This document shows, piece by piece, positions 3,586 to 64,000 of a DNA stretch of 64,000 nt. The DNA is from Bdellovibrionales bacterium (GTDB lineage Bacteria > Bdellovibrionota > Bdellovibrionia > Bdellovibrionales > JAUICD01). Position 1 is the stretch's first letter. Every line of letters starts with the position of its first letter. The position numbers and the translations under genes are program-made. The notes under the pieces are model-generated. The model searched no databases. It had not been told where the DNA came from and saw only the letters and a program-made list of their open reading frames with translations. Where the stretch lies: contig OZ241865.1 in NCBI GenBank assembly GCA_965203275.1, positions 512,001 through 576,000 of the forward strand, given 5' to 3'.

Positions 3586-5070
3586 ATGAGAATTTTAAAA
3601 TATATAGCTTTTGTTTTAACTTTAATAATGGGAATAAATCAAGAACTTCAGGCTGCTGCTGTTTTAGAACTCAATGGCCAATATTCCTTAGAAGGTGTTT
3701 GGATGAGAAACTCCCGCTTAGATGGCAGTTCAGGGAAGTTTTATTTTTTAAACCAGCTACGACTTAAGCCAGAGATTAAAGTAAAAGATGGACTTTCTGT
3801 CCATGGTCGTTTTGACATGCTGACAAATCCTTGGAGTCATACGTTCCAATACAAAGCAGGAAGCTTTTGGGGAATGGATAAAATATCACGAGGTTCTTCT
3901 CTGCAATCCTTTATTGACCTTGGAGTAGATGTGACTCACTTGTACTTTAGTTGGAGCAATGAGTTTGTCAAGCTGATGGGCGGTCGATTACCACTGGATT
4001 TTGGAGCAGGTCTTTTATTTGATGCAGGTGACGAACATTTAGATCATTTTGCGGATCACATAGATGGTATAGGTGTTGAGTTTAAGGCAGGCAATCTTTC
4101 TATCCGTCCAATATTTGGTGTACTCTCTAAAGGCCTTTATGGAACATCTAACGTCTATCGGTATTTAATTAATTTACAATATGAGCTAGTAGACTCAAAA
4201 TTATTATTTGATTTTATAGGTGTGATCACAGATGGACGAAGTGGCTCTAAACCTATGGTTTATGGTCCGCTGGTTCCTCTCTCTCTAAGAGATACATTTA
4301 TTCAAGATAAATACTTAGGGACATCTCCTCCTCCTCCTCCTCCTCAAACAGATTTAGCCCTTACAAGTTTAAACGACCACTGGTCGACCTACCATCTAGG
4401 AACATTTGTAAAAAAAGACTTTTCTATTGGCACTGTCAAGTTAGAAGTAGATTTTGTTTTAGGTCGAGATACAGGTATTCCTGTTGACTCACAGGGCAAT
4501 GCCTTAGCTGTGTCTGGTTATGGTGCCATAGCAGAGTTTATGACTCACCCTGGATCATGGCAGTGGGGCTTTAAGGCAGGTTATCTTTCAGGAGACGACC
4601 CAGAGACGACAGACAAATACGAGGGTTTTATTGCTCATCGCAACTATCCTGTAGGTATGTTAATGTTTAACCATGCTATTGGTCATCAAGATACCATTGG
4701 AGGTTCTTATCGTGTCCACCCTCCTACAGCAAATGAGTCTCAAAGTTATCAACAAAGTAATAATAGGAATAATTTGCCTGATATGGAATATTTAACCAAT
4801 GCTTTTTTTATTGCTCCTCATCTCACAAAGTCTCTTTTTAAAAATGGATATTTAACTACAGATGTGATCTGGGCTATGTTACCTGTGCCTTCACAGGGGA
4901 CAGATGCTAGAAACTTAGGATTTGAAATAGATCTAGGATTTATGTATAAAAGTAGCCAATATTTGACCTTAGGTCTTGAAACAGGATGGCTTTTCCCTGG
5001 TTCTGGCTTTATAGGGGATTCTCGGAGAATGGTCTATGGAGTTCAAGCAAATGCTATTATTTCCTTTTAA
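3586..5070 (+). CDS. Outer-membrane beta-barrel (porin-like) protein
   Basis: ATG at 3586 after GAGG; signal peptide; amphipathic strands; GYLSGDD and LGFEIDLG motifs; C-terminal Phe. Confidence 0.7.
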   Translation: MRILKYIAFVLTLIMGINQELQAAAVLELNGQYSLEGVWMRNSRLDGSSGKFYFLNQLRLKPEIKVKDGLSVHGRFDMLTNPWSHTFQYKAGSFWGMDKISRGSSLQSFIDLGVDVTHLYFSWSNEFVKLMGGRLPLDFGAGLLFDAGDEHLDHFADHIDGIGVEFKAGNLSIRPIFGVLSKGLYGTSNVYRYLINLQYELVDSKLLFDFIGVITDGRSGSKPMVYGPLVPLSLRDTFIQDKYLGTSPPPPPPQTDLALTSLNDHWSTYHLGTFVKKDFSIGTVKLEVDFVLGRDTGIPVDSQGNALAVSGYGAIAEFMTHPGSWQWGFKAGYLSGDDPETTDKYEGFIAHRNYPVGMLMFNHAIGHQDTIGGSYRVHPPTANESQSYQQSNNRNNLPDMEYLTNAFFIAPHLTKSLFKNGYLTTDVIWAMLPVPSQGTDARNLGFEIDLGFMYKSSQYLTLGLETGWLFPGSGFIGDSRRMVYGVQANAIISF

Positions 5071-5510
5071 ATTTTAGTTATTTATAACATTGTAGGTAAA
5101 TATATATTTCAGTTAAAAAGGCTTGATCTTAAAAAAATTACTTAATTTTTTTTTATTTAAAATAAAAAGTTTGACTTTTTACGAAAAAAGTATGAAGATA
5201 ATATATAAGCCACTAAAATATAACTCTTACCTTGTAAATGATTTTCCTGTAAACCGATCTCGCAAAAAACAAAGAAAGAATAATATTTTTATTTAAAGTA
5301 TACCATGTAAAAACCTGATAAGAATAAATCAATCCAATTATTCAAGAGTTTCTGTGTCTTAATAAAAGACACAAGAATAATAAAAAATATTTATTCTTTA
5401 ATAGAGTGTTAAGGAATAAGAAGATGTTCTCTATTTCTATTTAATTAAAGCGATCAGAAATGAGAGCATTTTGAATAAAACATACAAATAAACGAAAGGA
5501 GTCAATTATT

Positions 5511-7187
5511 GTGTCAGATTCTTATAAAGTAGAATCATCTACAACAGAAGCAAGAGCTAGTCGGTCATCAGAAAGAACAGAAGATAAGCGATCAGAATAT
5601 TCTTATCGAGATAGAGATCGAGATAATTATCGGGATCGAGATAGAGATCGGGATCGAGATAATTATCGGGATCGGGATCGGGATAATTATCGAGATAGAG
5701 ATCGGGATCGAGATAATTATCGGGGGCGTCGAGCTACAGGAGGGTATCGTAATTATAGACAGACAACCGGTGGACGACGACCATCTAACAACAATGACCA
5801 CACAAATCATAGAAGATCTTATCGCAGATTTGAAAGCTATAATCAAGGAGGGGATGATGTTGATGCTGGTCTCAACACAGAGCTAACAGAAGACCAGATA
5901 GAAAAAATTAAAAACTCTTTAACTGATGAAGAAAAAAAATCTCTTAATTCTAAAGATCTTAAATCTAAAAAAATTGAAGCCCTCACGAACCTTGCCATTA
6001 AGCTACAAATAGAGCATGCAGCAGGCTTCCGTCGTCAAGATTTGGTTTTTGAAGTTCTTAAACGAGCTGCTAAATTTGGTGATATTTTTGGTAATGGTAT
6101 TTTGGAGATATTGCCTGATAGTTATGGATTTTTACGTTCCCCAGATTATAATTATTTGCCTGGGCCAGATGATATCTATGTCAGTCCATCTCAAATCAGA
6201 CGTTTTGGTTTGAGGACAGGTGACACAATTGCAGGGACAGTCCGTCCACCTAAAGATAATGAAAATTACTTTGCACTCTTAAAAGTAGACACTCTTAATA
6301 AAGAACCTTTAGAGCAGTTTAAAGATAAAATTTTGTTTGATAATTTAACACCTCTTTATCCTGATGCAAGGCTTAATCTAGAACATAATCCCACCAACCT
6401 CACCACTCGTGTTGTGGATATGATGTCCCCATTAGGTAAAGGACAGAGAGCTTTGATTGTAGCCCCTCCTAGGACGGGCAAAACTGTTTTATTACAAGAT
6501 ATTGCCAATGCTATTTCTATTAACCAGCCAGAAGCTTTTTTGATTGTTTTGTTAATTGATGAAAGACCAGAAGAAGTTACAGACATGTCGCGCAGTGTAA
6601 AAGGAGAAGTGATCAGCTCTACATTTGATGAACCTCCTGGAAGGCATATCCAAGTGGCAGAGATGGTTTTAGAAAAAGCTAAAAGGCTTGTCGAACATAA
6701 ACATGATGTTGTGATCTTGTTAGATTCCATCACTCGTTTGGCAAGGGCTTACAATACAGTTGTGCCAGCATCAGGTAAGATTTTATCTGGAGGTGTGGAT
6801 TCGAATGCTCTGCATAAACCAAAAAGATTTTTTGGAGCAGCTCGAAATATTGAAGAAGGGGGAAGCTTGACTATTATAGCCACAGCCTTGATTGATACAG
6901 GGTCACGTATGGATGAACTGATCTTTGAGGAATTTAAAGGAACAGGTAATGCAGAAATTCACCTTGATCGTAAGTTAATGGAAAAGCGAATTTTCCCATG
7001 CATAGATATCAATAAATCTGGTACTCGCAAAGAAGATCTTCTTTTAGATAACAATTTATTGCAAAAGCTTTGGATTTTAAGAAAGGTTCTTGCTCCTATG
7101 AATGTGGTAGACAGCATAGAATTTCTATTGAAAAAGCTCAAAGTCACTAAGAGTAATGAAGATTTTATTGCCAGCATGAACAATTAA
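5511..7187 (+). CDS. rho: Transcription termination factor Rho with N-terminal Arg/Asp-rich extension
   Basis: [61 protein letters not shown]. Confidence 0.98.
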
Positions 7188-7397
7188 GATAATGACACTG
7201 TTTCATAAAGCTTTTTAATCCTCATGCCCTTCAATTTAAAATATTCAATAAAAATGCCATAGACTTAAGATTTGTTTTATCTGTATATTTCTTTTACCTT
7301 AACAAAATTTTAGATAAAAAATGGTCTATAAAAAGACTTTAGTCAAAATAGTTTTTTCTTTTTACTTTCCGATAAATATATAAGGAAAGGTTACAAA

Positions 7398-8654
7398 ATG
7401 AATAGAGAAAAATATCTTTTATTAGGCTTTTATATTTTATTGATGGGATGTGCTGAATCATCTCAAGAAGGTGCTGATTATAGCAATTTTACAGGGGAGC
7501 TAAGCCAGTACGAACGAGAAATTCAAAGCACTGCAGATCATCTTTACACAAATGGACGTATAGTTTCTGCCGATAGCAATGTCAGAAACATCTTGTGGAC
7601 CATGACGTGGGATAGCACCCGAAACAAACCCGTGCTTCAGATGCATATAGGTAATGAGACAAAAACCTATAACTTTGCTAATAGAGTGCTTATAGGAGGT
7701 CGTAGTGCTTTTATTGTTCCTTCTCAAGAAGATTTAAGAGGTCTTGGAAATAATCAAAGTAATTATGTCAGAGTACTACAAATCAATAACTCTATGCAAG
7801 AGATTAGAGGTTCTATTCTTTTAGCAGACAATAGTATGTTTGCTGAGATTAGAAATGCTCTCACCACTCAAAGCCCTCTAATAAATAATACAGCTTCCAC
7901 AGAGGCTTTTTTCAGGTTGACCTTTGCTAGAGCTGCACACTCTTATTCATATCTATCTGCTGCTCCACAAGTTCAAGAGCTTCTTGATCCTATTATGCAA
8001 GAAAGACAAGTTTACATTGTCATCTCTAGTTTGCATTGGGCTAGACGTAGTGGCAATATACCTTCTAGCAATACAGGGGCGTTGAATACAAATAATATTT
8101 TTAATCGAGATAGTGGTGTATTATCTTATCTTCCTCAAGGAGATGCAATAAGAGAAGGATTTTCTTATTTTGATACAACAAGTTATGCTACTGGGAACTC
8201 TGATGTGACTTTAGAGGGAAAAATTGATTTTTATGCTGATTTGTATTCTGTGGTAGATACAAGATACCGGGTGATCAATTTACATTTTAAACAATCTGCA
8301 AGGGATTTCCACAACCCTGGTCAATTTCAAAACGTAAATGTCTTATTGGCAATCAATTATAAACATAAGGATGCCAGTGTTGTTAATTTAAGATCCACTT
8401 TAAGAAGAAAAAACTTAGCCCCCTTAAACTTTCTCTTTGAATTTTCTGCTAGTATGGGAACCAATTCTGCTCGTATAAATTTAGAGATTTCTCGTTTAAC
8501 TGCTGTAAATCCTTTTCAAAGAAGCTCTTTTGCAGAAGGATATACACCTATAGCACATCTTTTAGAGAGTGTAGGTGGTAATCTTTTAGAGGGATTAAAA
8601 AAGATTGGAGGCGGTATAGCATGGCCTTTCAAAAGACTTATGGACATGTTTTAA
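7398..8654 (+). CDS. Hypothetical lipoprotein
   Basis: 418 aa; lipobox LMGC; RBS AAGG. Confidence 0.75.
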   Translation: MNREKYLLLGFYILLMGCAESSQEGADYSNFTGELSQYEREIQSTADHLYTNGRIVSADSNVRNILWTMTWDSTRNKPVLQMHIGNETKTYNFANRVLIGGRSAFIVPSQEDLRGLGNNQSNYVRVLQINNSMQEIRGSILLADNSMFAEIRNALTTQSPLINNTASTEAFFRLTFARAAHSYSYLSAAPQVQELLDPIMQERQVYIVISSLHWARRSGNIPSSNTGALNTNNIFNRDSGVLSYLPQGDAIREGFSYFDTTSYATGNSDVTLEGKIDFYADLYSVVDTRYRVINLHFKQSARDFHNPGQFQNVNVLLAINYKHKDASVVNLRSTLRRKNLAPLNFLFEFSASMGTNSARINLEISRLTAVNPFQRSSFAEGYTPIAHLLESVGGNLLEGLKKIGGGIAWPFKRLMDMF

Positions 8655-10070: not shown

Positions 10071-10445
10071 TTGTTAAGAAAAGAGAGGATATTCTCCTCT
10101 AGAGGAATAGGCAGTCAGGTTATTTTAAATCCTGAGTGCCTGTTTGCCGGAAGGCAAGATACCATATCCGGCATCTGGGATCCGGGATCCGGCATCTGGG
10201 ATCCGGCAACTGGCATCCGAGATCCGGGATCTGGGATCCGGGATCTGGGATCCGGGATCCGGCAACCCGGCAGACAGGGATGAAAAAATGCCTTGTTTCC
10301 TTAACATGATGTTAAAAGAGGAAAGGATCCTCCTACTAAAAGTGGTCAAGCTTTCTAGGTTGCCAGCAATTGAGAAGGCGAAAGCCTTCGGCTGGCAACC
10401 AGAAAGTAGCCAGAGGCTAGTTCAATTTTAGGGAAACTTAGTGAA
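10071..10445. repeat. Repeat cluster 1: heptamer array (10165-10270) plus one chimeric structured unit (10294-10437)
   Basis: GGGATC[CT] heptamers; TGTTTCCTTAACA...GGCGAAAGCC...CCAGAGG...GGGAAAC. Confidence 0.9.
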
Positions 10446-10529: not shown

Positions 10530-11276
10530 ATGAAAAATTTATTTTCAATAACTATTTTATTTTTAGCAGTTATTTTTATAGGTTGCAGTCAAGTCAACAA
10601 TGAGGTATGGAACAATACCCTTGCAGAATTTAAAAATCAAGTGACAACCCTTGTCAATACTATTGAAACAACACCCGATGAATACACTCCTACCAATATT
10701 GAAACTATTCGTTTATGGAGAGCCTCACATAATCAAGATGGTGATCTGCTTGCATTCTATATAGATATAAGGCTTGATGAAGAAGATATCACTCTGACCT
10801 ATAACATAAACAGGCAGGTGGAAATAGAAGGGACAAATATAACCCTCTTAGCCTCTGTAGAAGACCTTGAAACAAGCCCTGCTGATCTTTCACCTAAAAA
10901 TAAAATTCTTTTCATAGATAGAGCAAATGACACTAACAATAATGAAATAATGAGAGGTAATATTCAAGTGGTTGCACCTTCTCTTATTAATAGGCTACGT
11001 ACAGCTTGGATGGAAGGGGAGTCTATATCTGGTATACCAAACATAGGACAAACTGAGGCTATTTTCCTTTTACACTTTGAAAGTTTAGATACTTCTTTAA
11101 ATCAGTTTGATACAAGAGAAGAAATCCCTACTCAAATGAGATATGCGGTGAACCTCATTCGCAGAGACAATAATAATTGGACTATAGAGACTATAGAAGG
11201 TCAATCGGGATTATTTGACTCACCTAGAGAAGATATTTCTATCACTCCAAACCCAAATATTTTTCAAATAAAGTGA
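10530..11276 (+). CDS. Hypothetical lipoprotein
   Basis: 248 aa; lipobox FIGC. Confidence 0.75.
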   Translation: MKNLFSITILFLAVIFIGCSQVNNEVWNNTLAEFKNQVTTLVNTIETTPDEYTPTNIETIRLWRASHNQDGDLLAFYIDIRLDEEDITLTYNINRQVEIEGTNITLLASVEDLETSPADLSPKNKILFIDRANDTNNNEIMRGNIQVVAPSLINRLRTAWMEGESISGIPNIGQTEAIFLLHFESLDTSLNQFDTREEIPTQMRYAVNLIRRDNNNWTIETIEGQSGLFDSPREDISITPNPNIFQIK

Positions 11277-11282
11277 CCGTTT

Positions 11283-11752
11283 TGTTTCACTCAAAGTGAA
11301 CTGACCTCTGGTCACTTTTGGACAATGACCGCAAAGGCTTTCGCCTTTGACAAAATGGTCATTGTCTCAAAAGCCTGTTCACTTTGAGTAGGGAGGATCT
11401 CCTCGTCTCTTGACCACATGTTAGGGAAACAGAGTTTTATTCGCAAACTGTTTGCTCCTGAGATAATAAAAGAAATTTTCCCTAACATGGTGTAAAGAAA
11501 TAAAAGGATCCTCCCTACTCAAAATGCATAGATTTTTGAGGCAATCAGCCTTTGATCGACGGCGGTAGCCGTCGGGCTGATTGTCCAAAAACATGCCAGA
11601 GGCATGATGCATTTTGAGTGAAATGTTAAGGAAAAAGTTCCTTCTTACGGCTTTTGGCTCTCGCCGTTGATCAAAGGCTAACTGCCTAGAAAATCCATTT
11701 ATTTTGAGTAGGGAAGGATCTCCTCATTTTTTAACACAATGTTAAGGAAACA
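11283..11752. repeat. Repeat cluster 2: forward unit 11283-11431, reverse unit 11477-11623, half unit to 11752
   Basis: Nested inverted repeats and shared terminal motifs TGTTTCACTCAAA / TGTTAGGGAAACA. Confidence 0.92.
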
Positions 11753-11797
11753 AGGTTTTCGCTTCACTCCTGCCCGTTTGCCTGATGCCGGGTTGCC

Positions 11798-12018
11798 GGA
11801 TCCCAGATCCCGGATCCCGGATCCCAGATCCCGGATCCCGGATCCCAGATCCCAGATCCCGGATCCCAGATCCCAGATCCCAGATCCCGGATCCCGGATC
11901 CCGGATCCCAGATCCCGGATCCCGGATCCCGGATCCCGGATCCCAGATCCCGGATCCCAGATCCCGGATCCCGGATCCCAGATCCCAGATCCCAGATCCC
12001 GGATCCCAGATCCCAGAT
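11798..12018 (+). repeat. Heptamer tandem array (GATCCC[A/G]) of about 31 units
   Basis: Directly visible. Confidence 0.97.
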
Positions 12019-17814: not shown

Positions 17815-18846
17815 ATTTCACTAAAAATAAACCAGCCTCTGGCTACTTTCTGGTTGCCAGCCGAAGGCTTTCGCCTTCTTAAATGCTGGCAACCTAGAAA
17901 GCTTGACCACTTTTAGTGAAACAAACTCCCTAACCCCACCCACCGCCCTTCGATTCTGCTTTTCTATTTGTATGTTTTTTATGAGTGGAATGCGGGTGCA
18001 GGCTTCCGAAGTCCTCAACCTTCGCTTGCTTTTGGGGAGCAAGCGGGCCTGCGGAAGATCTTCAGCCTGCCCCCGCCTCCCACTCATAATATTCTTCATT
18101 TTTTTGAAAGTTATGCAGAATCTAAAAAAATATAAAAAAACAAAAAAACGAAATCTTGTTTCCTTAATATTTCACTCAAAATGCATCATGCCTCTGGCAT
18201 GTTTTTGGGCGTTTGTCTCACTAAAAATAAACCAGCCTCTGGCTGTTTTTGGGCATTGGCTCACTAAAAGTGGTCTAGCCTCTGGCTACTTTCTGGCAAT
18301 GACCGCAATGGCTTTCGCCATTGGCAAAATGGTCATTGCCTAGAAAGCTTGACCACTTTTAGTAGGGAGGATCCCTTCGTCCCTTAACTCCATGTTAAGG
18401 AAAAAGTTCTTTCTTACACCTTTTGGCTCTCGCCGTCGATCAAAGGCTGATTGCCTCAAAAATCCGTTTATTTTTAGTAAGGAGGATCTCCTCTTTTCTT
18501 AACACCATGTTAAGGAAACAAGCTATTTATTTCACTTTTTTCGCCGTTGACAAAATAGTCATTGCCTCAAAAATCTATGCATTTTGAGTAGGGAGGATCC
18601 TTTTATTCCTTTACACCATGTTAGGGAAAATTTCTTTTATTACCTCAAGAGCAAGCGGGCTTACAAATGAAACTCTGTTTCCTTAACATGTAGTAAAAAA
18701 ACGAAGGGTTCCTCCCTACTAAAAGTAAACGGACTTTTGAGGCATTGCTCTTTTTAGACAGCGTAAGCTGTCAGAGCAATGTCCAAAAGTAGCCAGAGGC
18801 TAGTTTACTTTTAGTGAACCAGAGGTGTGGCTCATTTTGAGTGAAA
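17815..18846. repeat. Repeat cluster 3: structured units, linker module B (17922-18165) and module C
   Basis: Same motifs as cluster 2. Confidence 0.9.
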
Positions 18847-26111: not shown

Positions 26112-27155
26112 TGTTTCACTAAAAGTAAACTAGCCTCTGGCTACTTTTGGACATTGCTCTGACAGCTTACGCTGTCTAAAAAGAGCAATGTCTCAAAAGT
26201 CCGTTTACTTTTAGTAAGGAGGATCTCTTCGTCTCTTTACACCATGTTAAGGAAAAAGTTCCTTTTAACAACGAGTTGCCGGATCCCGGATCCCAGATCC
26301 CGGGAAAAAGGATCCTCTCATATCCTTATATGCTTGAAACAAAGCATTCGTTTTTTTTATTTTTTTTAGATTCTGTGTAATTTTCAAAAAAGCGTGAATG
26401 TTATGAATGAGAGGCGGAGGTAAACTGAAAGGTTTACTTCACTAAAAGTGGTCTGACCTCTGGTCACTTTCTGGTTGCCAGCCGAAGGCTACCGCCTTCT
26501 CAATTGCTGGCAACCTCCACTTTTAGTAGAAAGGATCTCTCCTCTCTTAACATGATATTAAAGAAACAGTTCCTTTATTGCAACTCATTTGCCTCCCAAA
26601 AAATTTTAGAATCATATCTTGTTTCCCTAACATGGTGTCAGAAGCAAAGATATCCACCCTACTCAAAATGAGCAGATTTTTGAGGCATTGCTCTTTTTAG
26701 ACAGCGTAAGCTGTCATCAGAAGGAAATCTTTTTCCTTAACATGATGTTAAGAAATGAGGACATCCTTCTTCCTAAAATTGAACAAGCTTTTGAGGCAGT
26801 TAGCCTTTGATCGACGACGACAGTCGTCGGGATGCCCAAAAGTAGCCAGAGGCTAGTTCAATTTTAGGGAAACAGAGGTGTCTCATTTTATATCATGTTA
26901 AGGAAATAAGGCATTCGTTTTTTTATATTTTTTTTAGATTCTGTGTAAATCTCAAATAAAAAGTAATTAAGGGGAGGATGGGGCAGTGGAAGCCTTCCGA
27001 AGTCCTCAATTGAGCTTGCTTTTAAAGAGCAAGCTCAATTTGCGGAAGATCTCCAGGCTCCCGTTGCCACATCCTCAAGTAAAAACAAAAATGGAAAAGC
27101 AGAATCAAGGGCAGGGGGTGGGGTTAGGGAGTTAATTGGTTCACTAAAAATAAAT
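26112..27155. repeat. Repeat cluster 4, including module B with inverted core (26974-27076)
   Basis: Same motifs as the other clusters. Confidence 0.9.
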
Positions 27156-33730: not shown

Positions 33731-33875
33731 AATATTTAAGAGATGTGAGATGACCTTTTACATAAAAAACAAAGCTTTTTTCTATCCATACAGACCTCAA
33801 CAAGAACTTTGTGCATTTATTGATTATGATCCACAGATCACAATAGAGTTCTGATAGTTCATAATCACTTGATCA

Positions 33876-34095
33876 TTTCACTCAAAATGCATCATGCCTC
33901 TGGCATGTTTTTGGACAATGACCGCAAAGGCTTAAGCCTTTGACAAAATGGTCATTGCCTCAAAAATCTATGCATTTTGAGTAGAGGAGGATCTCCTCAT
34001 TTCTTAACATCATGTTAAGGAAAAATTTCCTTCTGATGCCCGATGCCCGATTCCCGGATCCCGGATCCTGGGATAAACACGATGTTAAGGAAAAT
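33876..34095. repeat. Repeat cluster 5: one full unit plus heptamer remnant
   Basis: TTTCACTCAAAATGCAT...ATGCATTTTGAGT...TGTTAAGGAAA. Confidence 0.9.
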
Positions 34096-35209: not shown

Positions 35210-35860
35210 ATCACTCAAAATAAATCATGCCTCTGTTTCCCTAAAATTGAACTAGCCTCTGGCTACTTTTGGACAGTTAGCCCGACGGCTCTCGCCGTCG
35301 ATCAAAGGCTAACTGTCTCAAAAGCTTGTTCAATTTTAGGAAGGAGGATCTCTTCGTCTCTTAACACCATGTTAAGGAAAAAGTTCCTTCTTACACCTTG
35401 GGCGATGACCACGATGGCTTTCGCCTTTGACAAAATGGTCATTGCCTCAAAAGCCTGACCACTTTTAGTAGAAAGGATCCTTTCCTCTTTTAACACCATG
35501 TTAAGGGTTTGTTTCACTAAAAGTGGTCTATTTCACTCAAAGTGAACTGACCTCTGTTTCCCTAAAATTGAACTAGCCTCTGGCTACTTTTGGACAGTTA
35601 GCCCGACGGCTCTCGCCGTCGATCAAAGGCTAACTGTCTCAAAAGCTTGTTCAATTTTAGGAAGGAGGATCTCTTCGTCTCTTAACACCATGTTAAGGGT
35701 TTGTTTCACTAAAAGTAAACTAGCCTCTGGCTACTTTTGGACAATGACCGCAATGGCTTTCGCCATTGGCAAAATGGTCATTGTCTCAAAAGTCCGTTTA
35801 CTTTTAGTAGGGAGGATCTCTTTCTCTCTTAACACCATGTTAAGGAAAAAGTTCCTTTAG
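35210..35860. repeat. Repeat cluster 6: head-to-tail nested units
   Basis: Full units at 35234, 35555 and 35702 plus truncated ones. Confidence 0.9.
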
Positions 35861-40096: not shown

Positions 40097-40109
40097 TCTT
40101 TAGAAGTCT

Positions 40110-40480
40110 TTTTCACTCAAAATGCATCATGCCTCTGGCATGTTTTTGGGCAATCAGCCCGACGGCTCACGCCGTCGATCAAAGGCTGATTGCCTCAAAA
40201 ATCTATGCATTTTGAGTAGAGGAGGATCCCTTCGTTTTTTAACAAGATGTTAAGGAAAAAGAGTTTTATTTTTTGAATAAAAAAAGATAAGCCCTTGAAG
40301 GCTTATCTTTTTTTTTCGTTCAAATGGGTTCACTGTTTCACTGTTTCACTAAAAGTGGTCTAGCCTCTGGCCACTTTCTGGCGATGACCACGATGGCTTT
40401 CGCCATCGATAAAATGGTCATCGCCCAAAAGCAACCAGAGGTTGGTTTACTTTTAGTGAAACAACTCATTTTGAGTGAAA
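40110..40480. repeat. Repeat cluster 7a
   Basis: Full unit 40110-40260; chimeric unit from 40343. Confidence 0.88.
40279..40316 (+). terminator. Intrinsic (bidirectional) terminator
   Basis: AAAAAAAGATAAGCC-CTTGAA-GGCTTATC-T9. Confidence 0.8.
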
Positions 40481-40660
40481 TGGATCATAAGGCAAAAGTC
40501 TAGGTTTTAAATAAAATTCAAGATTGATAAAAGTATTCAATATTTCTTGCCGATAAGAACTAATGAAAAGGTATTTAAAGTACTTTTTCCAGGATCCGGC
40601 AGTCCGGTATTAGGAGGTATTTATGACAACTATGACAACAACAAATTTCATTGAAAGGTT

Positions 40661-40710
<50 letters not shown>

Positions 40711-40859
40711 GCAATAAAGGGTTTTCTAGATATTTAACCTTTTCTCACAATTTGTCTAAAAAACTATCCCTTATTTCATATTATATTTCTTACTTAATTA
40801 AACACAGGTCATTCTTAATGAGTATGTCTCAAAATGAAACATATTTAATGGAGGAATTT

Positions 40860-41472
40860 TTCCCTTAATATTTCACTCAAAATGCATCATGCCTCTGGCA
40901 TGTTTTTGGGCAATGACCGCAACGGCTTTCGCCATTGACAAAATAGTCATTGCCTCAAAAATCTATGCATTTTGAGTAGGGCGAATCTCCTTGCTTCTTG
41001 ACACCATGTTAGGGAAACAAGACATGCTTCTAAAATTTTTTGGAGAGCAAGCGGGTTGCAATAAAGGAACTTTTTCCTTAACATGATGTAAAGAGACGAG
41101 AAGATTCTTCCTACTCAAAGTGAACAGGCTTTCTAGGCGATGACCATTTTATCGATGGCGAAAGCCATCGTGGTCATCGCCAGAAAGTGACCAGAGGTCA
41201 GTTCACTTTGAGTGAAATGACGGCATTGCTCTTTTTAGACAGCGTAAGCTGTCAGAGCAAACGTCAGAAGGAAATCTTTTTCCTTAACATTGTGTTAAGA
41301 AATGAGGACATCCTCCTTCCTAAAATTGAACAGGCTTTTGAGACAGTTAGCCTTTGATCGACGGCGAGAGCCGTCGGGCTAACTGTCCAAAAGTAGCCAG
41401 AGGCTAGTTCAATTTTAGGGAAACAGAGGCATGATTTATTTTGAGTGAAACAAACCACTTTTAGTGAAACAA
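40860..41472. repeat. Repeat cluster 7b
   Basis: Forward unit at 40871, reverse units 41072-41217 and 41278-41425. Confidence 0.9.
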
Positions 41473-42774: not shown

Positions 42775-42777
42775 GTT

Positions 42778-43125
42778 GTTTCACTCAAAATGAGCCACAT
42801 CGCTGGTGTGTTTTTGGGCATTGCTCTGACAGCTTATGCTGTCTAAAAAGAGCAATGCCGTTGGCTCACTAAAAGTGGTCTGGCCTCTGGCCACTTTCTG
42901 GCGATGACCACGACGGCTCACGCCGTCGATAAAATGGTCATCACCTAGAAAGCCTGACCACTTTTAGTAGAGAGGATCTCCTCGTTTTTTAACACGATGT
43001 TAAGGAAACAAAATGCCTTTTCTGCCTGATGCCCTCAAAAGCCTGTTCAATTTTAGGAAGGAGGATCTCTTCGTTTCTTAACACCATGTTAAGGAAACAA
43101 GAAGTTCACTCCCGGGATCCCGGAT
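42778..43125. repeat. Repeat cluster 8
   Basis: Same motifs as the other clusters. Confidence 0.9.
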
Positions 43126-46023: not shown

Positions 46024-47100
46024 TGTTTCACTAAAAGTAAACTGACCTCTGTTTCCCTAAAATTGAACTAGCCTCTGGCTACTTTCTGGCAATGACCGCG
46101 TTTGTCTCACTAAAAATAAACCAGCCTCTGGCTGTTTTTGGGCAATCAGCCCGACGGCTCTCGCCGTCGATCAAAGGCTGATTGCCTCAAAAATCCGTTT
46201 ATTTTTAGTAGGAAGAATCCTCTTGTCTCTTTACACGATGTTAAGGAAACAAGATGTTTATTTCCCATTGACAAAATGGTCATTGCCTAGAAAGCTTGTT
46301 CAATTTTAGGAAGGAGGATCTCTTCCTTTTTTAACATGATGTTAAGGAAAAAGATTTCCTTCTGATGCCGGCTTGCCCGATTGCCGGATCCCAGATCCCG
46401 GAATGAACACTATGTTAAGGAAAAAGTTCCTTCCATGACCTATTATGCACAGATTACAAACGATTGCAAACGAAAACAACCCACATTGTAAAGGTTATAG
46501 AGTACTTTGTAAATTTTACATGGTTTTTTTCACTCAAAGTGAACTGGCCTCTGGCCACTTTTGGACAATGACCGCAAAGGCTTTCGCCTTTGACAAAATG
46601 GTCATTGTCTCAAAAGCCTGTTCACTTTGAGTAGGGAGGATCTCTTCGTTTCTTAACACAATGTTAAGGAAAAAGTTCATTCTTACACCTTTTGGCTGTC
46701 GCCGTCGATCAAAGGCTAACTGCCTCAAAAGCCTGTTCAATTTTAGGAAGGAGGATCTCCTCGTCTCTTTACAGCATGTTAAGGAAACAAAGCATTCCTT
46801 TTTTTTATTTTTTTTATTCTTTTTTAGATTCTGCGTAAATCTCAAACAAAAAATAATTAGGTGGAGGATGGGGCAGTGGGAGACTGAAGATCTTCCGCAA
46901 ATTGAGCTTGCTCTTAAAGAGCAAGCTCAATTGAGGACTTCGGAAGGCTCACACTGCCCCATCCTCAAATAAAAATAAAATATAAAAGCAGAATCGAAGG
47001 GTGGCGGGTGGGGTTAGGGAGTTTGGTTCACTAAAAGTGGTCTAGCCGTCATTTTCACTCAAAATGCATAGATTTTTAAGTGAAATGTTAAAGGAAAAAA
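46024..47100. repeat. Repeat cluster 9: nested units, heptamer remnant, module B (46790-47027)
   Basis: Same motifs as the other clusters. Confidence 0.9.
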
Positions 47101-54411: not shown

Positions 54412-56180
54412 CTGGGATCCCGGGATCTGGGATCCGGGATCCTGGGATCCGGCAATCAGGCAACCCGGCATCAGATCCCGGGGTGAAATAAACAGCTTGT
54501 TTCCTTAACATGTAGTTAAGAAAGGAGGATATCCTCCCCTACTCAAAATGAGCAGTTTTTTGCGGCATTGCTCTTTTTAGACAGCGTAAGCTGTCAGAGC
54601 AATGCCCAAAAACACACCAGAGGTGTGGCTCATTTTGAGTGAAACAACTAACTCCCTACTAAAAGTAAACGGACTTTTGAGACATTGCTCTTTTTGGACA
54701 GCGTAAGCTGTCAGAGCAATGTCCAAAAGTAGCCAGAGGCTAGTTTACTTTTAGTGAAAAACAGTTCAGGCAATACTAGATTTGGAATTTGTTGGCTGTA
54801 TGAAATTAGCAAAACAAGCTGATAGATTAGGTGCTGTTTTGTACAAGTTATGTAAAAATACTTAAATTCAAATTTGATTTTTCCTGGGATCTGGGATCCG
54901 GGATCTGGCAACCCGGCATCAGATCCCGGGGTGAAATAAACAGCTTGTTTCCTTAACATGTAGTTAAGAAAGGAGGATATCCTCCCCTACTCAAAATGAG
55001 CAGTTTTTTGCGGCATTGCTCTTTTTAGACAGCGTAAGCTGTCAGAGCAATGCCCAAAAACACACCAGAGGTGTGGCTCATTTTGAGTGAAACAACTAAC
55101 TCCCTACTAAAAGTAAACGGACTTTTGAGACATTGCTCTTTTTGGACAGCGTAAGCTGTCAGAGCAATGTCCAAAAGTAGCCAGAGGCTAGTTTACTTTT
55201 AGTGAAAAACAGTTCAGGCAATACTAGATTTGGAATTTGTTGGCTGTATGAAATTAGCAAAACAAGCTGATAGATTAGGTGCTGTTTTGTACAAGTTATG
55301 TAAAAATACTTAAATTCAAATTTGATTTTTCCTGGGATCTGGGATCCGGGATCTGGCAACCCGGCATCAGATCACAGAAATGAACTTTTTCCTTAACATG
55401 AAGTAAAAAAATGAAGGGATCCTCCTTACTCAAAGTGAACAGGCTTTCTAGGTTGCCAGCATTTGAGAAGGCGATAGCCTTCGGCTGGCAACCAGAAAGT
55501 GGCCAGAGGCCAGTTCACTTTGAGTGAACCAACTAACTCCCTACTAAAAGTAAACGGACTTTTGAGGTAGCCAGCCTTTGATCGACGGCGGTAGCCGTCG
55601 GGCTGGCTACCCAAAAGTGACCAGAGGTCAGTTTACTTTTAGTGCAGATCAAATGAGGCAATGACCATTTTGCCAATGGCGAAAGCCATTGCGGTCATCG
55701 CCCAGGGTGTAAGAAGGAACTTTTTCCTTAACATGGGGTTTATCCGGGATCCGGGATCCGGCCACTGGCAACCCGGCAGGAGTGAAGCGAAAATCTTGTT
55801 TCCTTAACATTTCACTCAAAATGAGCCACACCGCTGGTGTGTTTTTTGGTGTTGCCTGCAAAGGCTTTCGCCTTTGACAAAATAGGCAACACCTAAAAAA
55901 TCCGCTCATTTTGAGTAGAGGAGGATCCTTTTATTCCTTTACAACATGTTAAGGAAAAAGTGTTTTTATTGTCTTAGGAGCAAGCGGGCTACGATAAAGA
56001 AACTTTTTCCTTAACATGGTGTTAAGAAATGAGGACATCCTTCTTCCTAAAATTGAACAAGCTTTCTAGGCAATGACCATTTTGCCAATGGCGAAAGCCA
56101 TTGCGGTCATTGCCAGAAAGTAGCCAGAGGCTAGTTCAATTTTAGGGAAACAGAGGCTAGACCACTTTTAGTGAACCAGA
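54412..56180. repeat. Repeat cluster 10, including a 448-bp tandem duplication
   Basis: 54459-54906 repeated at 54907-55354. Confidence 0.92.
54764..54865 (+). pseudogene. 3' fragment of a four-helix-bundle gene (duplicated at 55212-55313)
   Basis: VQAILDLEFVGCMKLAKQADRLGAVLYKLCKNT*, homologous to 61280-61333(-). Confidence 0.75.
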
Positions 56181-56685: not shown

Positions 56686-56954
56686 AATCTATTCCTTTAT
56701 TTTTAATACTTGTATTTTTAATACTTGCATTTATTAAACTTCTTAAACTTAATCCGAACCTTACAACATTTTGTAAAATATTTCAACCTAAATTTAAGTA
56801 TGTAATTTTTACATAAAAGTCCTTATAAATATTGTAAATATTCTCAGTTTAAATAGACCTTCGGCTCTAAGTAGGTTATAAATATTGATTTTTAAGCTAT
56901 TTAAAGATAATATTTTATAATAGAATTTAGTCAAGGATGAGGGGGAGATGATTA

Positions 56955-57730
56955 TCCGGGATCTGGGATCCGGGGGCTGGGATCCGGGACCTGGGATCCG
57001 GGGGCTGGGATCCGGGAACCGGGATCTGGGGGCTTGGGATCTGGGATCTGGCAACCCGGCAGACAGGCAAGGAAAAATCGTGTTAAGAGACAAAAGGATT
57101 ATCCCTAACCCCACCCACCACCCTTCAATTCTGCTTTTCCATTTGTATATTTTTTATGAGTGGAATGCGGGGTCAGGCTTCCGAAGTCCTCAATTTTTTT
57201 CACTCAAAATGAACTGGCCTCTGGCCACTTTCTGGTTGCCAGCCGAAGGCTATCGCCTTCTCAAATGCTGACAACCTAGAAAGCTTGTTCATTTTGAGTA
57301 GAGAAGGATCTCCTTGCTTCTGACACCATGTTAGGGAAAAAGTGCTTTTATTACATTAAAAGCAAGCGGGTTTACGAATGAAGTTACGAATGAAGTTCTT
57401 TTTCCTTAACATTGTGTTAAGAAATGAGGAGATCCTCCTTCCTAAAATTGAACAAGCTTTTGAGACAGTTAGCCTTTGATCGACGGCGAGAGCCGTCGGG
57501 CTAACTGTCCAAAAGTAGCCAGCAGTGATAAAGGAGCTTTTTCCTTAACATGGTGTTAAAAGAGGAAAGGATCCTTCCTACTCAAAGTGAACAGGCTTTC
57601 TAGGCGATGACCATTTTACCGATGGCGAAAGCCATCGTGGTCATCGCCAGAAAGTGGCCAGAGGCCAGTTCACTTTGAGTGAAACAGAGGCTAGTTCAAT
57701 TTTAGGGAACCAGACCACTTTTAGTGAAAG
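56955..57730. repeat. Repeat cluster 11: degenerate heptamers, partial module B, structured units
   Basis: Same motifs as the other clusters. Confidence 0.9.
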
Positions 57731-60512: not shown

Positions 60513-62265
60513 TCTCACTAAAAATAAACCAGCCTCTGGCTACTTTTGGGCATTGGCTCACTAAAAGTGGTCTAGCCTCTGGCTACTTTCTGGCAATGAC
60601 CGCAATGGCTTTCGCCATTGGCAAAATGGTCATTGCCTAGAAAGCTTGACCACTTTTAGTAGGGAGGATCCCTTCGTCCCTTAACTCCATGTTAAGGAGT
60701 TGTTTCACTAAAAGTGGTCTAGCCTCTGGCTACTTTCTGGCGATGACCACGATGGCTTTCGCCATCGATAAAATGTTCATCGCCTAGAAAGCCTGACCAC
60801 TTTTAGTAGGAGGATCCTTTCCTCTTTTAACATCATGTTAAGGAAACAAAATGCTTTCAAAATTATATTAAAAGAGCAATGCCTCAAAAATCCGTTTATT
60901 TTTAGTAGGAAGAATCCTTTTGTCTCTTTACACGATGTTAAGGAAACAGTTCCTTCTGATCCCGGGTTGCCGGTTGCCGGATCCCGGATCCCGGATTGAC
61001 ACGATGTTAAGGAAACAGTTCTTTCTTACACCTTTTGGCTGTCGCCGTCGATCAAAGGCTGAGTTGTTTCACTCAAAGTGAACTGACCTCTGGTCACTTT
61101 TGGACAATGACCGCAAAGGCTTTCGCCTTTGACAAAATGGTCATTGTCTCAAAAGCCTGTTCACTTTGAGTAGAGAGGATCCTTTTTTCTCTTAACACCA
61201 TGTTAAGGAAAAAGAGTTCTTTCTGATCCCGGGTTGCCGGATGCCAGATCCCGGATCCCGGAAAAGATCAAATTTGACTTTAAGTATTTTTACACAGTTT
61301 GTATAAATAAGCTCCTAATTGATCAGCTTGTTTTGTTTCACTAAAAGTGGTCTAGCCTCTGGCTACTTTCTGGCGATGACCACGATGGCTTTTGCCATCG
61401 ATAAAATGGTCATCGCCTAGAAAGCCTGACCACTTTTAGTAGAAAGGATCTCTTCGTTTTTTAACACCATGTTAAGGAAAAAGAGTTTCATTGAGATTTC
61501 TTAGAGAGCCAAGACTAATATAATAAAATTTCCTACGATCTTTTGCTGTAGGTTTAGCAGATCCTTCAGCTAAGTTAAGTACAATACTTGAAACAGCCCT
61601 TCGAAATTGACTTCTATGAGGCTCTTTCAGATGTAATTTTTTAGAGTTACGATAAAACTGAGTAGCTAATTGATAAGTTTTGAATTTTTGCATCGTCATA
61701 AAAATTTCCTCCTTTCTGAAAACCCGCCAGGGCTTGGGAGGAAATTTTTTAGATGCAAAAATTTATTACGATCAATGCTTTAGGACCTGATGCCAGATTG
61801 TTTCACTAAAAGTGGTCTAGCCTCTGGCATGTTTTCTGGCAGTTAGCCCGACGGCTCTTGCCGTCGATCAAAGGCTGAGTTGTTTCACTCAAAGTGAACT
61901 GACCTCTGGTCACTTTTGGACAATGACCGCAAAGGCTTTCGCCTTTGACAAAATGGTCATTGTCTCAAAAGCCTGTTCACTTTGAGTAGAGAGGATCCTT
62001 TTTTCTCTTAACACCATGTTAAGGAAAAAGAGTTCTTTCTGATCCCTGACTGCCGGATCCCGGGTTGTTTCACTAAAAGTGGTCTAGCCTCTGGCTACTT
62101 TCTGGCGATGACCACGATGGCTTTCGCCATCGATAAAATGGTCATCGCCTAGAAAGCCTGACCACTTTTAGTAATGAGGATCTCTTCGTCTCTTGACCAC
62201 ATGTTAAGGAAACAAAATGCCTTTTCTGCCTGATGCCGGGTTGCCGGATCCCAGATCCCGGAGGG
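60513..62265. repeat. Repeat cluster 12: head-to-tail units enclosing a broken four-helix-bundle gene
   Basis: Units at 60555, 60701, 61064, 61334, 61881 and 62066. Confidence 0.92.
61280..61699 (-). pseudogene. Four-helix-bundle protein (23S rRNA IVP / Avd-like family) interrupted by a repeat unit
   Basis: N-part MQKFKTYQLA...SQFRRAVSSIVLNLAEGSAK...DRRKFYYISLGSLR (61699 to ~61493); C-part KQADQLGAYLYKLCKNT* (61333-61280). Confidence 0.85.
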
Positions 62266-62413: not shown

Positions 62414-64000
62414 ATGATGAACAAATATCATCCTTTTTTATGTTTATTTTTTGTAGTCAATGTAATCAATGTTTGTAAGGCATTTGCCTTCCCACAAGAA
62501 GACTGCCCTGGCGTTTTACTTACCACTTTGGATAAAGATCATCAAAGGTTCAGAGAGCTTTCACCAGAAGCTCAAAACATGCTCCAGATAGCTTCAATCA
62601 TTGCTCAGGTGACACATAACAATGACTCTATACCAGCAAAAATGAATATTTATCATGTCCTACTTGCAGCTTTGACAAAAATCCAATCAGCCAATGAGGC
62701 CATCTATCGTTTAAATTTAGAGGATTTAGCTGGTGATGGTGAAAATAAAAGTGCATTATTTGTTGTGTTAGAGAATTTAGGGATTTTAAGAGATTTTCAA
62801 AGATTTCTTTTAAAAGAAATAGGTTTAAATAGTAGCAACCCAGAGCCTTTTGAATTCCAATCAGATAGATTACTTCTTCTCAATTTGAATGAAGCTGTAT
62901 TGACATCGATAAAAATTGACTATGATGAAGAATTTGATCGCTTATGGAACTTAGCTATTCGTGAGAAAGAAGAAGAGATCAGAACCATACATCGTCAAAA
63001 TGGTCGGATTTTACAACTTAGTAATACAGAAAATGTAGTCAGGTACATAAAAATTAGGGATAAGACAAAACGATATGATAAGACTTTTCGGATTCCCACA
63101 TTTCCAGAACATTTCTTTTTAGCATCCTTGCATGTTGATTTGCCTATTTTTCATTTTCTATCAGAGTATTTTGATGGTAAGACACCGGCTCAGATTAAAG
63201 GTACACTCTATCCATTGATAGATCAAGCTAAGCAATCTTTTTGGAATTTTTCAAAAAAGAAAAAACGCAATTCACATTCTAAAGAAGAAAAAGCAATAAT
63301 TACTCTTAAACTAGAAGCTCTCTTTGCAGATCATCCGGGAGGTTTAACTTTAAAGCAGATCAAGGCTGGAATAACAGAGTTTGCTAACAGTTCAGATAGG
63401 ACAATTCGCAACAGACTAAAGGAAAATGGGTATGGAGTTCAAGGAACTTTTCCGGGGGCTTTATGGAATCATCAAATAAGAATAGATAAAGAAAAGCCAA
63501 GACTTCGTCGCAAGCTAGAAACTCTCTTTGCAAATCATCCGGGAGGTTTAACTTTCAAGCAGATAAAGGCTGGAATATCAGAGTTTGCTAATATGCCAGA
63601 TAAGACAATTCACAACAGACTAAAGGAAAATGGGTATGGAGTTCAAGGAATTTTTCCGGGGGCTTTATGGAATCATCAAATAAGAATAGATGAAGAAAAG
63701 GCAAAACTTCGTCACGATCTAGAAGATCTCTTTGCAGATCATCCGGGAGGTTTAACTTTAAAGCAGATCAAGGCTGGAATAACAGAGTTTGCTAACATTT
63801 CAGATAGGACAATTCGCGAAAGACTAAAGGAAAATGGATATGAAGTTCAAGGACTCGGTCCGTATGCTTTATGGTATCAGCAAGGCCATCAAACAAGACA
63901 TGATGAAGAAAAAGCAATAATTACTCTTAAACTAGAAACTCTCTTTGCAGATCATCCGGGAGGTTTAACTTTCCAGCAGATAAAGGACGCTGGAATAACA
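62414..64000 (+). CDS. Secreted protein with Clp-N-like region and tandem 68-aa winged-helix-like repeats, 3' end outside window
   Basis: Manual translation is stop-free from ATG 62414 to the window end; signal peptide ending AFA; repeats at 204/204/213-nt spacing. Not in the ORF track. Confidence 0.85.
   Translation, partial: MMNKYHPFLCLFFVVNVINVCKAFAFPQEDCPGVLLTTLDKDHQRFRELSPEAQNMLQIASIIAQVTHNNDSIPAKMNIYHVLLAALTKIQSANEAIYRLNLEDLAGDGENKSALFVVLENLGILRDFQRFLLKEIGLNSSNPEPFEFQSDRLLLLNLNEAVLTSIKIDYDEEFDRLWNLAIREKEEEIRTIHRQNGRILQLSNTENVVRYIKIRDKTKRYDKTFRIPTFPEHFFLASLHVDLPIFHFLSEYFDGKTPAQIKGTLYPLIDQAKQSFWNFSKKKKRNSHSKEEKAIITLKLEALFADHPGGLTLKQIKAGITEFANSSDRTIRNRLKENGYGVQGTFPGALWNHQIRIDKEKPRLRRKLETLFANHPGGLTFKQIKAGISEFANMPDKTIHNRLKENGYGVQGIFPGALWNHQIRIDEEKAKLRHDLEDLFADHPGGLTLKQIKAGITEFANISDRTIRERLKENGYEVQGLGPYALWYQQGHQTRHDEEKAIITLKLETLFADHPGGLTFQQIKDAGIT

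Follow-up and report, generated by a model that had tools for sequence, protein, structure and literature searches.

A polar, non-autonomous repeat in a Bdellovibrionales genome that multiplies only when its three-way junction is paired

The Repeat and Its Setting in the Window

The window considered here is the whole 64,000-nucleotide stretch of DNA that was analysed, and its source is a genome (hereafter G000) made up of a single 2.57-Mb contig with a G+C content of 35% and 90% completeness by markers. At 11283–11431, on the plus strand, lies the focal full copy of a dispersed, structured repeat, as delimited by sequence, fold, and nhmmer. An inverted full copy (11476–11624, minus strand) has its left end abutting the reversed right-end motif, one of 93 such joints genome-wide. 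Further on are the right-half remnant of an older copy (11655–11752, plus strand) and an array of GATCCC(A/G) heptamers that comes after a right end (11799–12015, plus strand). A second small hairpin repeat family, with GAGC-AAGC arms, occurs at 11432–11475 of the window and throughout the genome, for example near 124,822 and 705,885 of the contig (G000:C1); these hairpins, together with others having a GGGTGG-rich arm, are frequent targets of the element and linkers between its inverted copies.

Elsewhere in the window, single copies are found at 10294–10438 (minus strand, full), at 17816–17917 (plus strand, a partial piece covering model positions 4–108), and at 33874–34025 (plus strand, full, between smpB and nusG). 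Most others occur in groups. A nested stack of mixed strand at 18169–18821 consists of old left fragments (18169–18258), a new copy (18257–18405) and its tail, the old right remnant (18424–18520), a further remnant (18539–18630), and an inverted copy (18676–18821). Clusters of mixed strand occupy 26112–26908 (copies and remnants), 40109–41425, and 57196–57686, while plus-strand groups include a stack of four same-sense copies (35234–35851), a nested stack (42777–43099), and two more nested stacks (46050–46789). A composite of mixed strand at 54498–56152 combines copies, heptamers, and carried gene fragments and is partly tandem-duplicated, with a 448-bp duplication of the composite unit at 54498–55208. 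Finally, a long same-sense stack (60513–62214, plus strand) surrounds a four-helix-bundle (PF05635) gene (61280–61699, minus strand) that is interrupted by the copy at 61334–61482 plus its 18-nt tail.

In all, nhmmer found 57 repeat pieces in the window (E<0.01), covering 6,706 bp. Of these, 34 span the model, including two weak opposite-strand shadows, and 29 score E<1e-30. The P1 alleles that the original prediction, made by eye on this DNA, gave for the focal copy and six others are all present; its total of ~10 kb is too high unless tails and heptamer arrays are counted. It had also taken all copies to be intergenic except those in the broken four-helix-bundle gene, to which two further 3′ fragments of this gene must be added, one between copies at 54758–54862 and one at 55206–55310 (both plus strand). 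Two ORFs without a Pfam match overlap copies (17903–18343 and 56948–57271) and are probably spurious.

Across G000 the repeat amounts to 1,459 pieces and 158 kb, or 6.2% of the genome, with 1,280 left ends and 1,128 right ends. The genome-wide profile was built from the 601 full copies that could be parsed (of 625), and these ~600 full copies carry discrete stem alleles. None of the 1,459 pieces lies wholly within an ORF of at least 300 aa, as called by a program that splits interrupted genes. The family is confirmed to be real. Its right-end pattern occurs 36 times in the window and in none of 100 shuffles, and sequencing runs from four studies show bins with copies to be far deeper than unique bins (for example, 4,000–7,500 versus ~40 in run X1, and 245–534 versus 2–5 in run X8), so the repeat is no artefact of assembly. 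One of the deep-coverage runs is a sponge metagenome with a relative that is ~95% alike, and one run may be the very sample from which the genome came.

Anatomy of the Unit

The left 101 nt of the element form a three-way junction composed of P1, P3, and P2, the last being a long arm that has two bulges and ends in a hairpin. In the focal copy (all plus strand), a T-rich leader and the first fixed C (11283–11288) make up the sharp end, which is the 3′ end of the bottom strand. The junction itself (11289–11389) contains P1 (11289–11301 paired with 11377–11389), the P3 hairpin (11302–11314), a basal P2 helix (11315–11320 with 11368–11373), P2a (11321–11330 with 11357–11366), the P2b hairpin (11331–11349), and bulges at 11350–11356 and 11367. 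A 29-nt purine/pyrimidine spacer (11390–11418) leads to the motif TGTTA(A/G)GGAAA (11419–11429), which is followed by a variable T-rich tail. This copy folds with z = -8.5 as DNA and -8.2 as RNA, and none of 200 shuffles folds equally well.

The stems have been maintained by compensatory change. Stem statistics were taken from 597 copies, four of the 601 having been left out for uneven arms, and 19,957 of 20,432 stem cells (97.7%) proved to be Watson-Crick; the invariance of the outer P1 columns is partly due to the parser requiring them. Among 42 copies from two species, 21 of them from the related genome G001, both sides had changed in 30 of 41 pairs by counts that ignore kinship, a figure reached by none of 500 shuffles and compared with at most 9 in slid controls. 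The covariation originally described for P1, P3, P2a, and P2b is thereby borne out, and the basal P2 helix (CTTTTG/CAAAAG), absent from that description, covaries too. Common paired alleles number 10 for P1, 8 for P3, 5 for the P2 base, and 16 for P2a, and allele networks connect them through no fewer than 47 double-sided changes. The 597 copies have almost no fixed G-U pairs, and no common allele contains one.

The right 40 nt are of a different kind, being a fixed sequence motif and not a hairpin. TGTTA(A/G)GGAAA is near-invariant and kept across species, while its apparent partner arm varies freely; the right-hand hairpins first proposed (TTAACA-N3-TGTTAA and AGGGAGG) show no covariation. 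Nor are the predicted terminal inverted repeats maintained, as they match at 6/6 positions in 118 of 597 copies and do not covary (p = 0.19). The spacer between junction and motif keeps a length of 28–31 nt with a variable sequence and no covariation. A folded left domain with an invariant motif 28–31 nt to its right makes the element a shape plus a motif at fixed distance. Recognition is two-part and the element is polar, both of which the first description had missed.

Longer variants also exist, in which an extra hairpin in P3 or beside P1′ creates a four-way junction (L103:4601–5002; L006 ~1750–1850).

Pairing and Amplification

A copy was scored as amplified when its whole stem haplotype was common to another copy. 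By this measure, haplotypes are shared by 379 of the 490 copies with a perfect P1, by 13 of 48 with one mismatch, and by 14 of 23 with two, while the 36 copies with three or more P1 mismatches all have unique haplotypes (0/36 amplified). P1 arms are mismatched, i.e., swapped, in 64 of 551 copies, versus 85% expected if the arms were independent. Linkage between alleles tracks structure and not linear distance, being 0.76 for P1-P1′, 0.62 for P1 and the P2 base, 0.49 for P1-P2a, 0.32 for P1-P2b, and 0.23 for P1 and the loop. Alleles recombine heavily between copies, and 79 combinations of P1, P3, P2a, and P2b alleles were seen among 359 cleanly typed copies. Only copies with a paired three-way junction give rise to more copies, and it is pairing, not sequence, that decides. 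Unpaired recombinants arise, yet multiplication is reserved for those that pair, which argues against template switching alone.

Two asymmetries concern the strand. Single-mismatch classes on the top strand are more often A·C than G·T (43 versus 17, p = 0.001), and private stem changes are more often G>A than C>T (51 versus 24, p = 0.002). A top-strand A·C mismatch is a G·T wobble on the bottom strand, and tolerance of wobble, like deamination of an exposed strand, would speak for the bottom strand. Copies are randomly oriented relative to genes and show no replichore bias (210/437 overall, 62/135 for young copies; dnaA is at 1.583 Mb), in a genome whose gene orientation is scrambled as well (670/1295).

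Fifteen groups of identical copies occupy unlinked sites in G000, which suggests recent activity without an RT, although gene conversion could also yield them. DGR-like adenine mutagenesis, suspected from the T-rich variable loops, was rejected: private changes show no excess of T origin, and sense variation in the four-helix-bundle genes amounts to C/T 31 versus A/G 26.

Insertion, Replacement, and Nesting

The two ends of the element differ. The left is sharp, with conservation beginning 7 nt ahead of the first fixed base, and the right is loose, fading over the T-rich tail. In about 700 of the 1,280 left ends, the preceding DNA belongs to another copy, and the joints gather at a few hot sites, namely the P3 loop (132+20), a reversed right end (93), and positions immediately within the motif (50+31). 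Many of these left ends may descend from single events. Incomplete left ends, in turn, are followed by a new left end in 366 cases, by another piece in 135, by heptamers in 7, and by unrelated DNA in 99.

Both halves of the older copy are present in 128 nested events, with leaders of 2–13 nt and, in 114 of them, tails of 13–23 nt. Target bases were lost at 62 of 78 distinct site pairs and none were lost at 16, and the outer arms match in 34 of 81 nested cases versus 13% by chance. Comparison with empty paralogs (n = 42) gave lost bases in 39 and overlap in 3, under an 18-nt exact-match rule that inflates tails and losses and with many paralogs that are themselves repeats. Insertions into four-helix-bundle genes give the clearest picture, with losses of 49, 4, and 29 bp; the first of these is the insertion at 61334–61482 of the window, where 49 bp of the gene are missing and the target is not duplicated. 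Hairpin-repeat targets lost 7 and 13 bp. The nested site pairs and the empty paralogs show loss of target bases and not their duplication, and the targets are diverse, with no fixed tetranucleotide. In individual examples, short overlaps are seen at the junctions. Five four-helix-bundle insertions have a common tail and differing inner alleles, so their interiors must have been exchanged after insertion. Runs of the four studies, in which contigs break at the repeats, yielded no empty site, and all empty alleles therefore derive from paralogs. In sum, insertion is observed to be polar, to substitute for target DNA, to occur within older copies, and to take neighbouring DNA along.

An IS256-like element with an 8-bp duplication sits within one repeat copy (G000:C1:432,252–433,487), so that IS insertion is younger than the copy.

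Four-Helix-Bundle Genes and Other Neighbours

G000 has 14 matches to PF05635, a family that has a solved relative (2GSC) and is kin to the DGR partner Avd. In the nine intact copies, 43 synonymous versus 14 non-synonymous codon variants indicate a gene under purifying selection. A reversed right end lies at most 109 nt away on the 3′ side of 30 of the 32 four-helix-bundle gene pieces in G000, so that the bottom strand of the element is the sense strand of the gene and the fold lies at its 3′ side. Heptamer tracts come after a same-sense right end in 148 of 256 cases and after an opposite one in 23, and 18 four-helix-bundle 3′ fragments have been carried to other G000 sites, two of them within the window. 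Among the G001 loci, which comprise 340 kb picked around four-helix-bundle, Rpn, and RT genes and are not a random sample, copies flank 3 of 8 four-helix-bundle genes on both sides versus 1 of 216 other ORFs (p = 1e-4), with mixed orientation. The co-oriented four-helix-bundle gene is the best-linked gene. Expansions of 11–19 copies of this gene occur in G004 (main contigs), G021, and G025, which have no element in their own DNA, and the link may therefore be one of hitch-hiking. A search for longer fused four-helix-bundle forms returned one match only, of 186 aa.

Other repeats accompany this gene family elsewhere. On the main contigs of G004 (L011–L026), two unrelated repeats nest in each other and interrupt five four-helix-bundle genes. 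One is a hairpin whose outer stem appears, by eye, to covary (an attempted count caught only nine copies); the other is a 60-bp unit that nests in this hairpin and is in frame in five four-helix-bundle genes. In G021 (L118–L131), a sharp end in the same sense follows 14 of 18 four-helix-bundle gene pieces, and the flanks of 13 such ends are all different. The G021 unit is dispersed in a genome without an RT match; its 3′ end is sharp, and truncation at the 5′ side seems to vary. In its last bases (GAAC-/GACC-like) it is similar to the G000 element and both G004 repeats at their bottom-strand ends, perhaps by chance. Head-to-head pairs of four-helix-bundle genes were noted in G025 (L132–L135) as well as G031, G035, and G067, and the palindromic spacer of the G025 pair holds both ribosome-binding sites.

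Rpn/YhgA nucleases were considered as movers and rejected. Their flanking in G000 looked supportive (16/18 versus 543/1,803 other ORFs), but it was not reproduced in the G001 loci (3/19 versus 34/216 other ORFs), G003 has 16 Rpn genes and no element, and another multicopy family in G000 is flanked equally often. A multicopy repeat-protein family (window 62433–64000, plus 11 pieces or paralogs), flanked about as often as the Rpn genes, may have been spread by the element.

Searches for a Mobilizing Enzyme and the Loss of recJ

Named-profile searches of G000 did not find a known transposase or RT that would fit the element. RTs were sought with PF00078 (0 matches) and, in all six frames, with a profile made from 20 RTs of the order (best E 0.19), and none was found in G004 or G021 either. 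G001 has three RTs, none with an element copy within 300 bp; a retron St85-family effector fused to its RT forms a single 590-aa ORF there (L086:10523–12295). Y1/RAYT proteins are absent from G000 (PF01797, 0 matches; the control was positive in 6 of 14 genomes), an IS110 enzyme was not found, and a Y2 search (PF04986) that had no positive control match gave 0 matches. An HUH-like motif occurs in 27 ORFs, and by eye none of these resembled a transposase. RecT and an AEP primase-polymerase were likewise not found in G000, and Rpn families are present. The genome also has IS256-like, IS1634-like, and serine resolvase families, named from their motifs, and the ends of the first two (the DDE families compared) are by inspection unlike those of the element. 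Its two tyrosine recombinases score 54–55 bits against an integron-integrase cut-off of 265; the smaller, a 187-aa protein with the catalytic domain only (G000:C1:2,047,789–2,048,349; L002), occurs in 23 of 31 genomes of the order.

Several further candidates were set aside. The sole GIY-YIG match was a UvrC-sized protein. SbcD, the loss of which might have offered an explanation, was not found in 17 of 21 genomes, yet is present in G001. A reading of the right hairpin as Xer/dif or attI was unfit in spacing and junctions, judged against the dif and attI consensus.

Among repair genes, a model search found recJ missing in G000, G001, G003, and G004 and present in G002. Gene order is secD-secF-recJ-x-queC in G002 versus secD-secF-queC in G000, with a gap of ~30 bp (G000:C1:2,253,289–2,256,612), and recJ has been cleanly deleted there together with the following gene; the neighbours were named secD, secF, and queC from their sequences, and recJ was assigned by model. 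With recJ missing from 12 of 41 relatives, 10 of which do not carry the element in DNA of their own, the loss of recJ can be no more than permissive. G000 retains RecA, DprA, ExoVII, MutL, and three DEDDh exonucleases.

Range of the Element

By blastn, the element occurs in G000 and G001 only, among 41 genomes. The covariance-model search of genomes proposed at the outset was positive in 3 of 81 genomes of the order, the third being G004. Its matches lie on three small contigs, which have housekeeping genes 60–89% identical to those of G000 and one of which is syntenic with G001, and they probably represent bin contamination by a third member of G000's genus and not a wider range. The contigs concerned (C1, C4, and C11; L103, L104, and L105–L107) hold longer four-way variants among their matches, and contigs C9 and C10 of G004 look foreign too, having a transposon-like and a phage-like piece. 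JGI metagenome and viral contigs gave no match to one exact pattern each, and the element was not found in the plasmid and phage collections searched. Rfam yielded 0 matches in the window at the gathering score, with only sub-threshold hairpin matches at 11250–11800, in agreement with the initial view that this is not a described family. A full-text literature search, with coverage that leaves out most subscription journals, returned no description of such a family, and passages of one recent report (10.64898/2026.09.22.753630) mention neither Bdellovibrio nor four-helix proteins. The element is apparently undescribed and restricted, among the genomes searched, to one Bdellovibrionales genus.

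Relationship to Known Mobile Sequences

In size and fold the element resembles bcr1 of the Bacillus cereus group, a dispersed sequence of ~155 bp whose branched fold is kept by compensatory changes and which has been called a special class of mobile sequence (PMC3184786). bcr1 has 5-bp direct repeats at every copy, whereas the G000 element lacks them; it takes the place of target DNA, inserts into its own copies, and exchanges stem modules. With REPINs and the GTAG- and CGTC-tagged REPs it shares hundreds of intergenic copies, a compensated hairpin, and clustering by insertion into older copies (PMC3116915, PMC3733652); the CGTC REPs, too, are described as lacking a known transposase (PMC3733652). 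A high-copy intergenic palindrome with compensatory changes is indeed a REP/REPIN trait, but the present unit is one asymmetric three-way junction plus a motif and not a doublet of inverted 20–40-bp REPs, its right end is loose, it shows no location bias downstream of genes, and the genome has no RAYT/Y1 gene. The label "REPIN-like" is not supported as membership, and neither is "MITE-like", since target duplications are lacking and terminal inverted repeats are not maintained.

Like attC, the element appears as one folded strand read by shape, with bulged bases and little sequence conservation (PMC2727003), yet it is branched and not linear, it has no tie to cassettes, its junctions are imprecise, copies do not occur one per ORF, and there is no integron integrase. 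Like the element, the IS91 family has polar ends, no target duplication, and run-on capture of flanks (PMC13181058); the G000 element differs in having no Y2 transposase found (in the search without a positive control), no fixed target tetranucleotide, and target DNA that is lost. In SPDIR, known from Acinetobacter baylyi, single strands replace the target via short imperfect matches (10.1101/2023.11.22.568220), much as would be the case here. SPDIR mutations are rare, arise from random donors no longer than ~100 bp, and are drawn as lagging-strand events, whereas here one specific folded donor has spread to about 1,400 pieces without replichore bias. The same protein family occurs in selfish multi-copy units, again without a known mobilizer, in four-helix-bundle (PF05635/TIGR02436) cassettes and 23S rRNA intervening sequences (PMC4990558). 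In G000 the genes are flanked by heptamer arrays, lie between protein genes, and have the three-armed element on their 3′ side, and most copies of the element stand apart from the gene. The element falls short of the defining features of MITEs, REPINs, attC, IS91, bcr1, and retroposons; it works like a non-autonomous structured repeat.

Possible Mechanisms of Mobility

That the repeat is a non-autonomous mobile element recognized by shape, as originally proposed, agrees with its pairing-dependent amplification, with insertions that interrupt known sequences, and with the lack of an Rfam match. A conventional structured RNA gene, the other option then raised, is disfavoured by the near absence of fixed G-U pairs and by random orientation to genes. 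We give about even chances to a polar element whose bottom strand, folded and as DNA, serves as a donor that host repair joins to the target. This strand would be freed in single-stranded, folded form and would more probably be DNA than RNA, given 97.7% Watson-Crick pairs and no common G-U allele. The donor would have its 3′ end at the base of P1 and its 5′ end a variable distance past TGTTA(A/G)GGAAA; new copies are seen to enter with a sharp left end (a 2–13-nt T-rich leader) and a loose right end (usually a 13–23-nt tail). Host recombination or repair would join both donor ends via short imperfect matches, in a SPDIR-like manner and helped by loss of the 5′-ssDNA exonuclease RecJ; RecJ/ExoX loss is reported to raise SPDIR (10.1101/2023.11.22.568220). 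As observed, older copies and other repeats are the preferred targets, target DNA is replaced and not duplicated, and heptamer arrays and four-helix-bundle gene pieces can be carried along. Replacement of this kind between copies, with only paired products able to multiply, would account for the mosaic stems, and fold and motif would be read by a factor, for which the four-helix-bundle gene is the best-linked candidate. The lack of replichore bias counts against a strictly lagging-strand route. Speaking against host repair, SPDIR patches of ~3–100 bp are extremely rare and the inserts here are at least 150 bp, while a motif invariant across species implies a sequence-specific protein, which a passive repair model does not supply. 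The retention of RecA, DprA, ExoVII, MutL, and the DEDDh exonucleases and the existence of recJ-less relatives without the element count against it as well.

The mover could instead be a dedicated, unrecognized single-strand nuclease or recombinase with RAYT-, IS91-, or integrase-like logic, whether diverged, lost, or acting in trans, and we regard this as a lesser but genuine possibility. It would bind fold and motif and carry out one-ended transfer from the left end, with loose ends and deletions left to later repair. The invariant motif and spacer length fit this, many left ends fall at a few hot joining sites, recognition of a fold that has bulged bases, with the bottom strand preferred, recalls attC (PMC2727003), and absent target duplication with co-mobilized flanks recalls IS91 one-ended transposition (PMC13181058). 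Weighing on the other side are the lack of a Y1 match, the 27 HUH-motif ORFs that are not transposase-like by eye, leaders that vary over 2–13 nt, the absence of a fixed target tetranucleotide, and two tyrosine recombinases under the integron-integrase cut-off, the small one being present in 23 of 31 relatives. It is rather unlikely, though conceivable, that four-helix-bundle proteins are themselves the missing movers of a class of transposase-free, RT-free mobile elements. Each would bind a folded strand 3′ of its own gene, host repair would paste from the sharp 3′ end, and the three-armed repeat would be a parasite, with independent examples in G004 (the unrelated self-nesting repeats) and G021 (the cassette with a sharp end).

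Still less probable is a SINE-like retroposon, in which the bottom strand would be the 3′ end of a four-helix-bundle transcript, reverse transcribed into breaks by an RT since lost or borrowed. The sharp 3′ and variable 5′ ends, read in the sense of the gene, a matching polarity in the G021 unit (14/18 pieces, 13 distinct flanks), the wobble-type mismatches on the bottom strand, and random orientation are all consistent with it, as are the three RTs of G001 and the kinship of the family with Avd. A role of Avd in DGRs is described in PMC6182149. This reading must contend with the absence of an RT match in G000, G004, and G021, with G001 RTs that have no copy within 300 bp, with the lack of adenine-specific mutagenesis and the near absence of fixed G-U pairs, and with the 15 identical-copy groups at unlinked sites, which suggest recent RT-free activity. 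A host-beneficial structured signal (a terminator, RNA stabilizer, or nucleoid site) spread by gene conversion and hairpin template switching is very improbable. Those processes would give paired changes without selection on mobility, and copies are intergenic with heavily recombining alleles; however, copies interrupt one another as well as a gene that is under purifying selection, their orientation to genes is random, the element is not found outside one genus, and unpaired recombinants persist uncorrected and never multiply.

Biological Significance

Many bacterial repeats, including CGTC REPs, bcr1, heptamer arrays, and rRNA intervening sequences, lack a known mover. What is new here is the selection on pairing, the junction anatomy, the strand, and the loss of recJ, and the manner of moving is possibly new as well. 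G000 amounts to a natural selection experiment, in which ~600 full copies show directly that pairing decides multiplication and in which the anatomy of the junctions has been recorded. If it is true that host repair and a small orphan protein suffice, selfish DNA can arise without a transposase, and the four-helix-bundle family would gain a testable function. If a hidden enzyme is responsible instead, it would represent a new shape-reading, DNA-joining activity.
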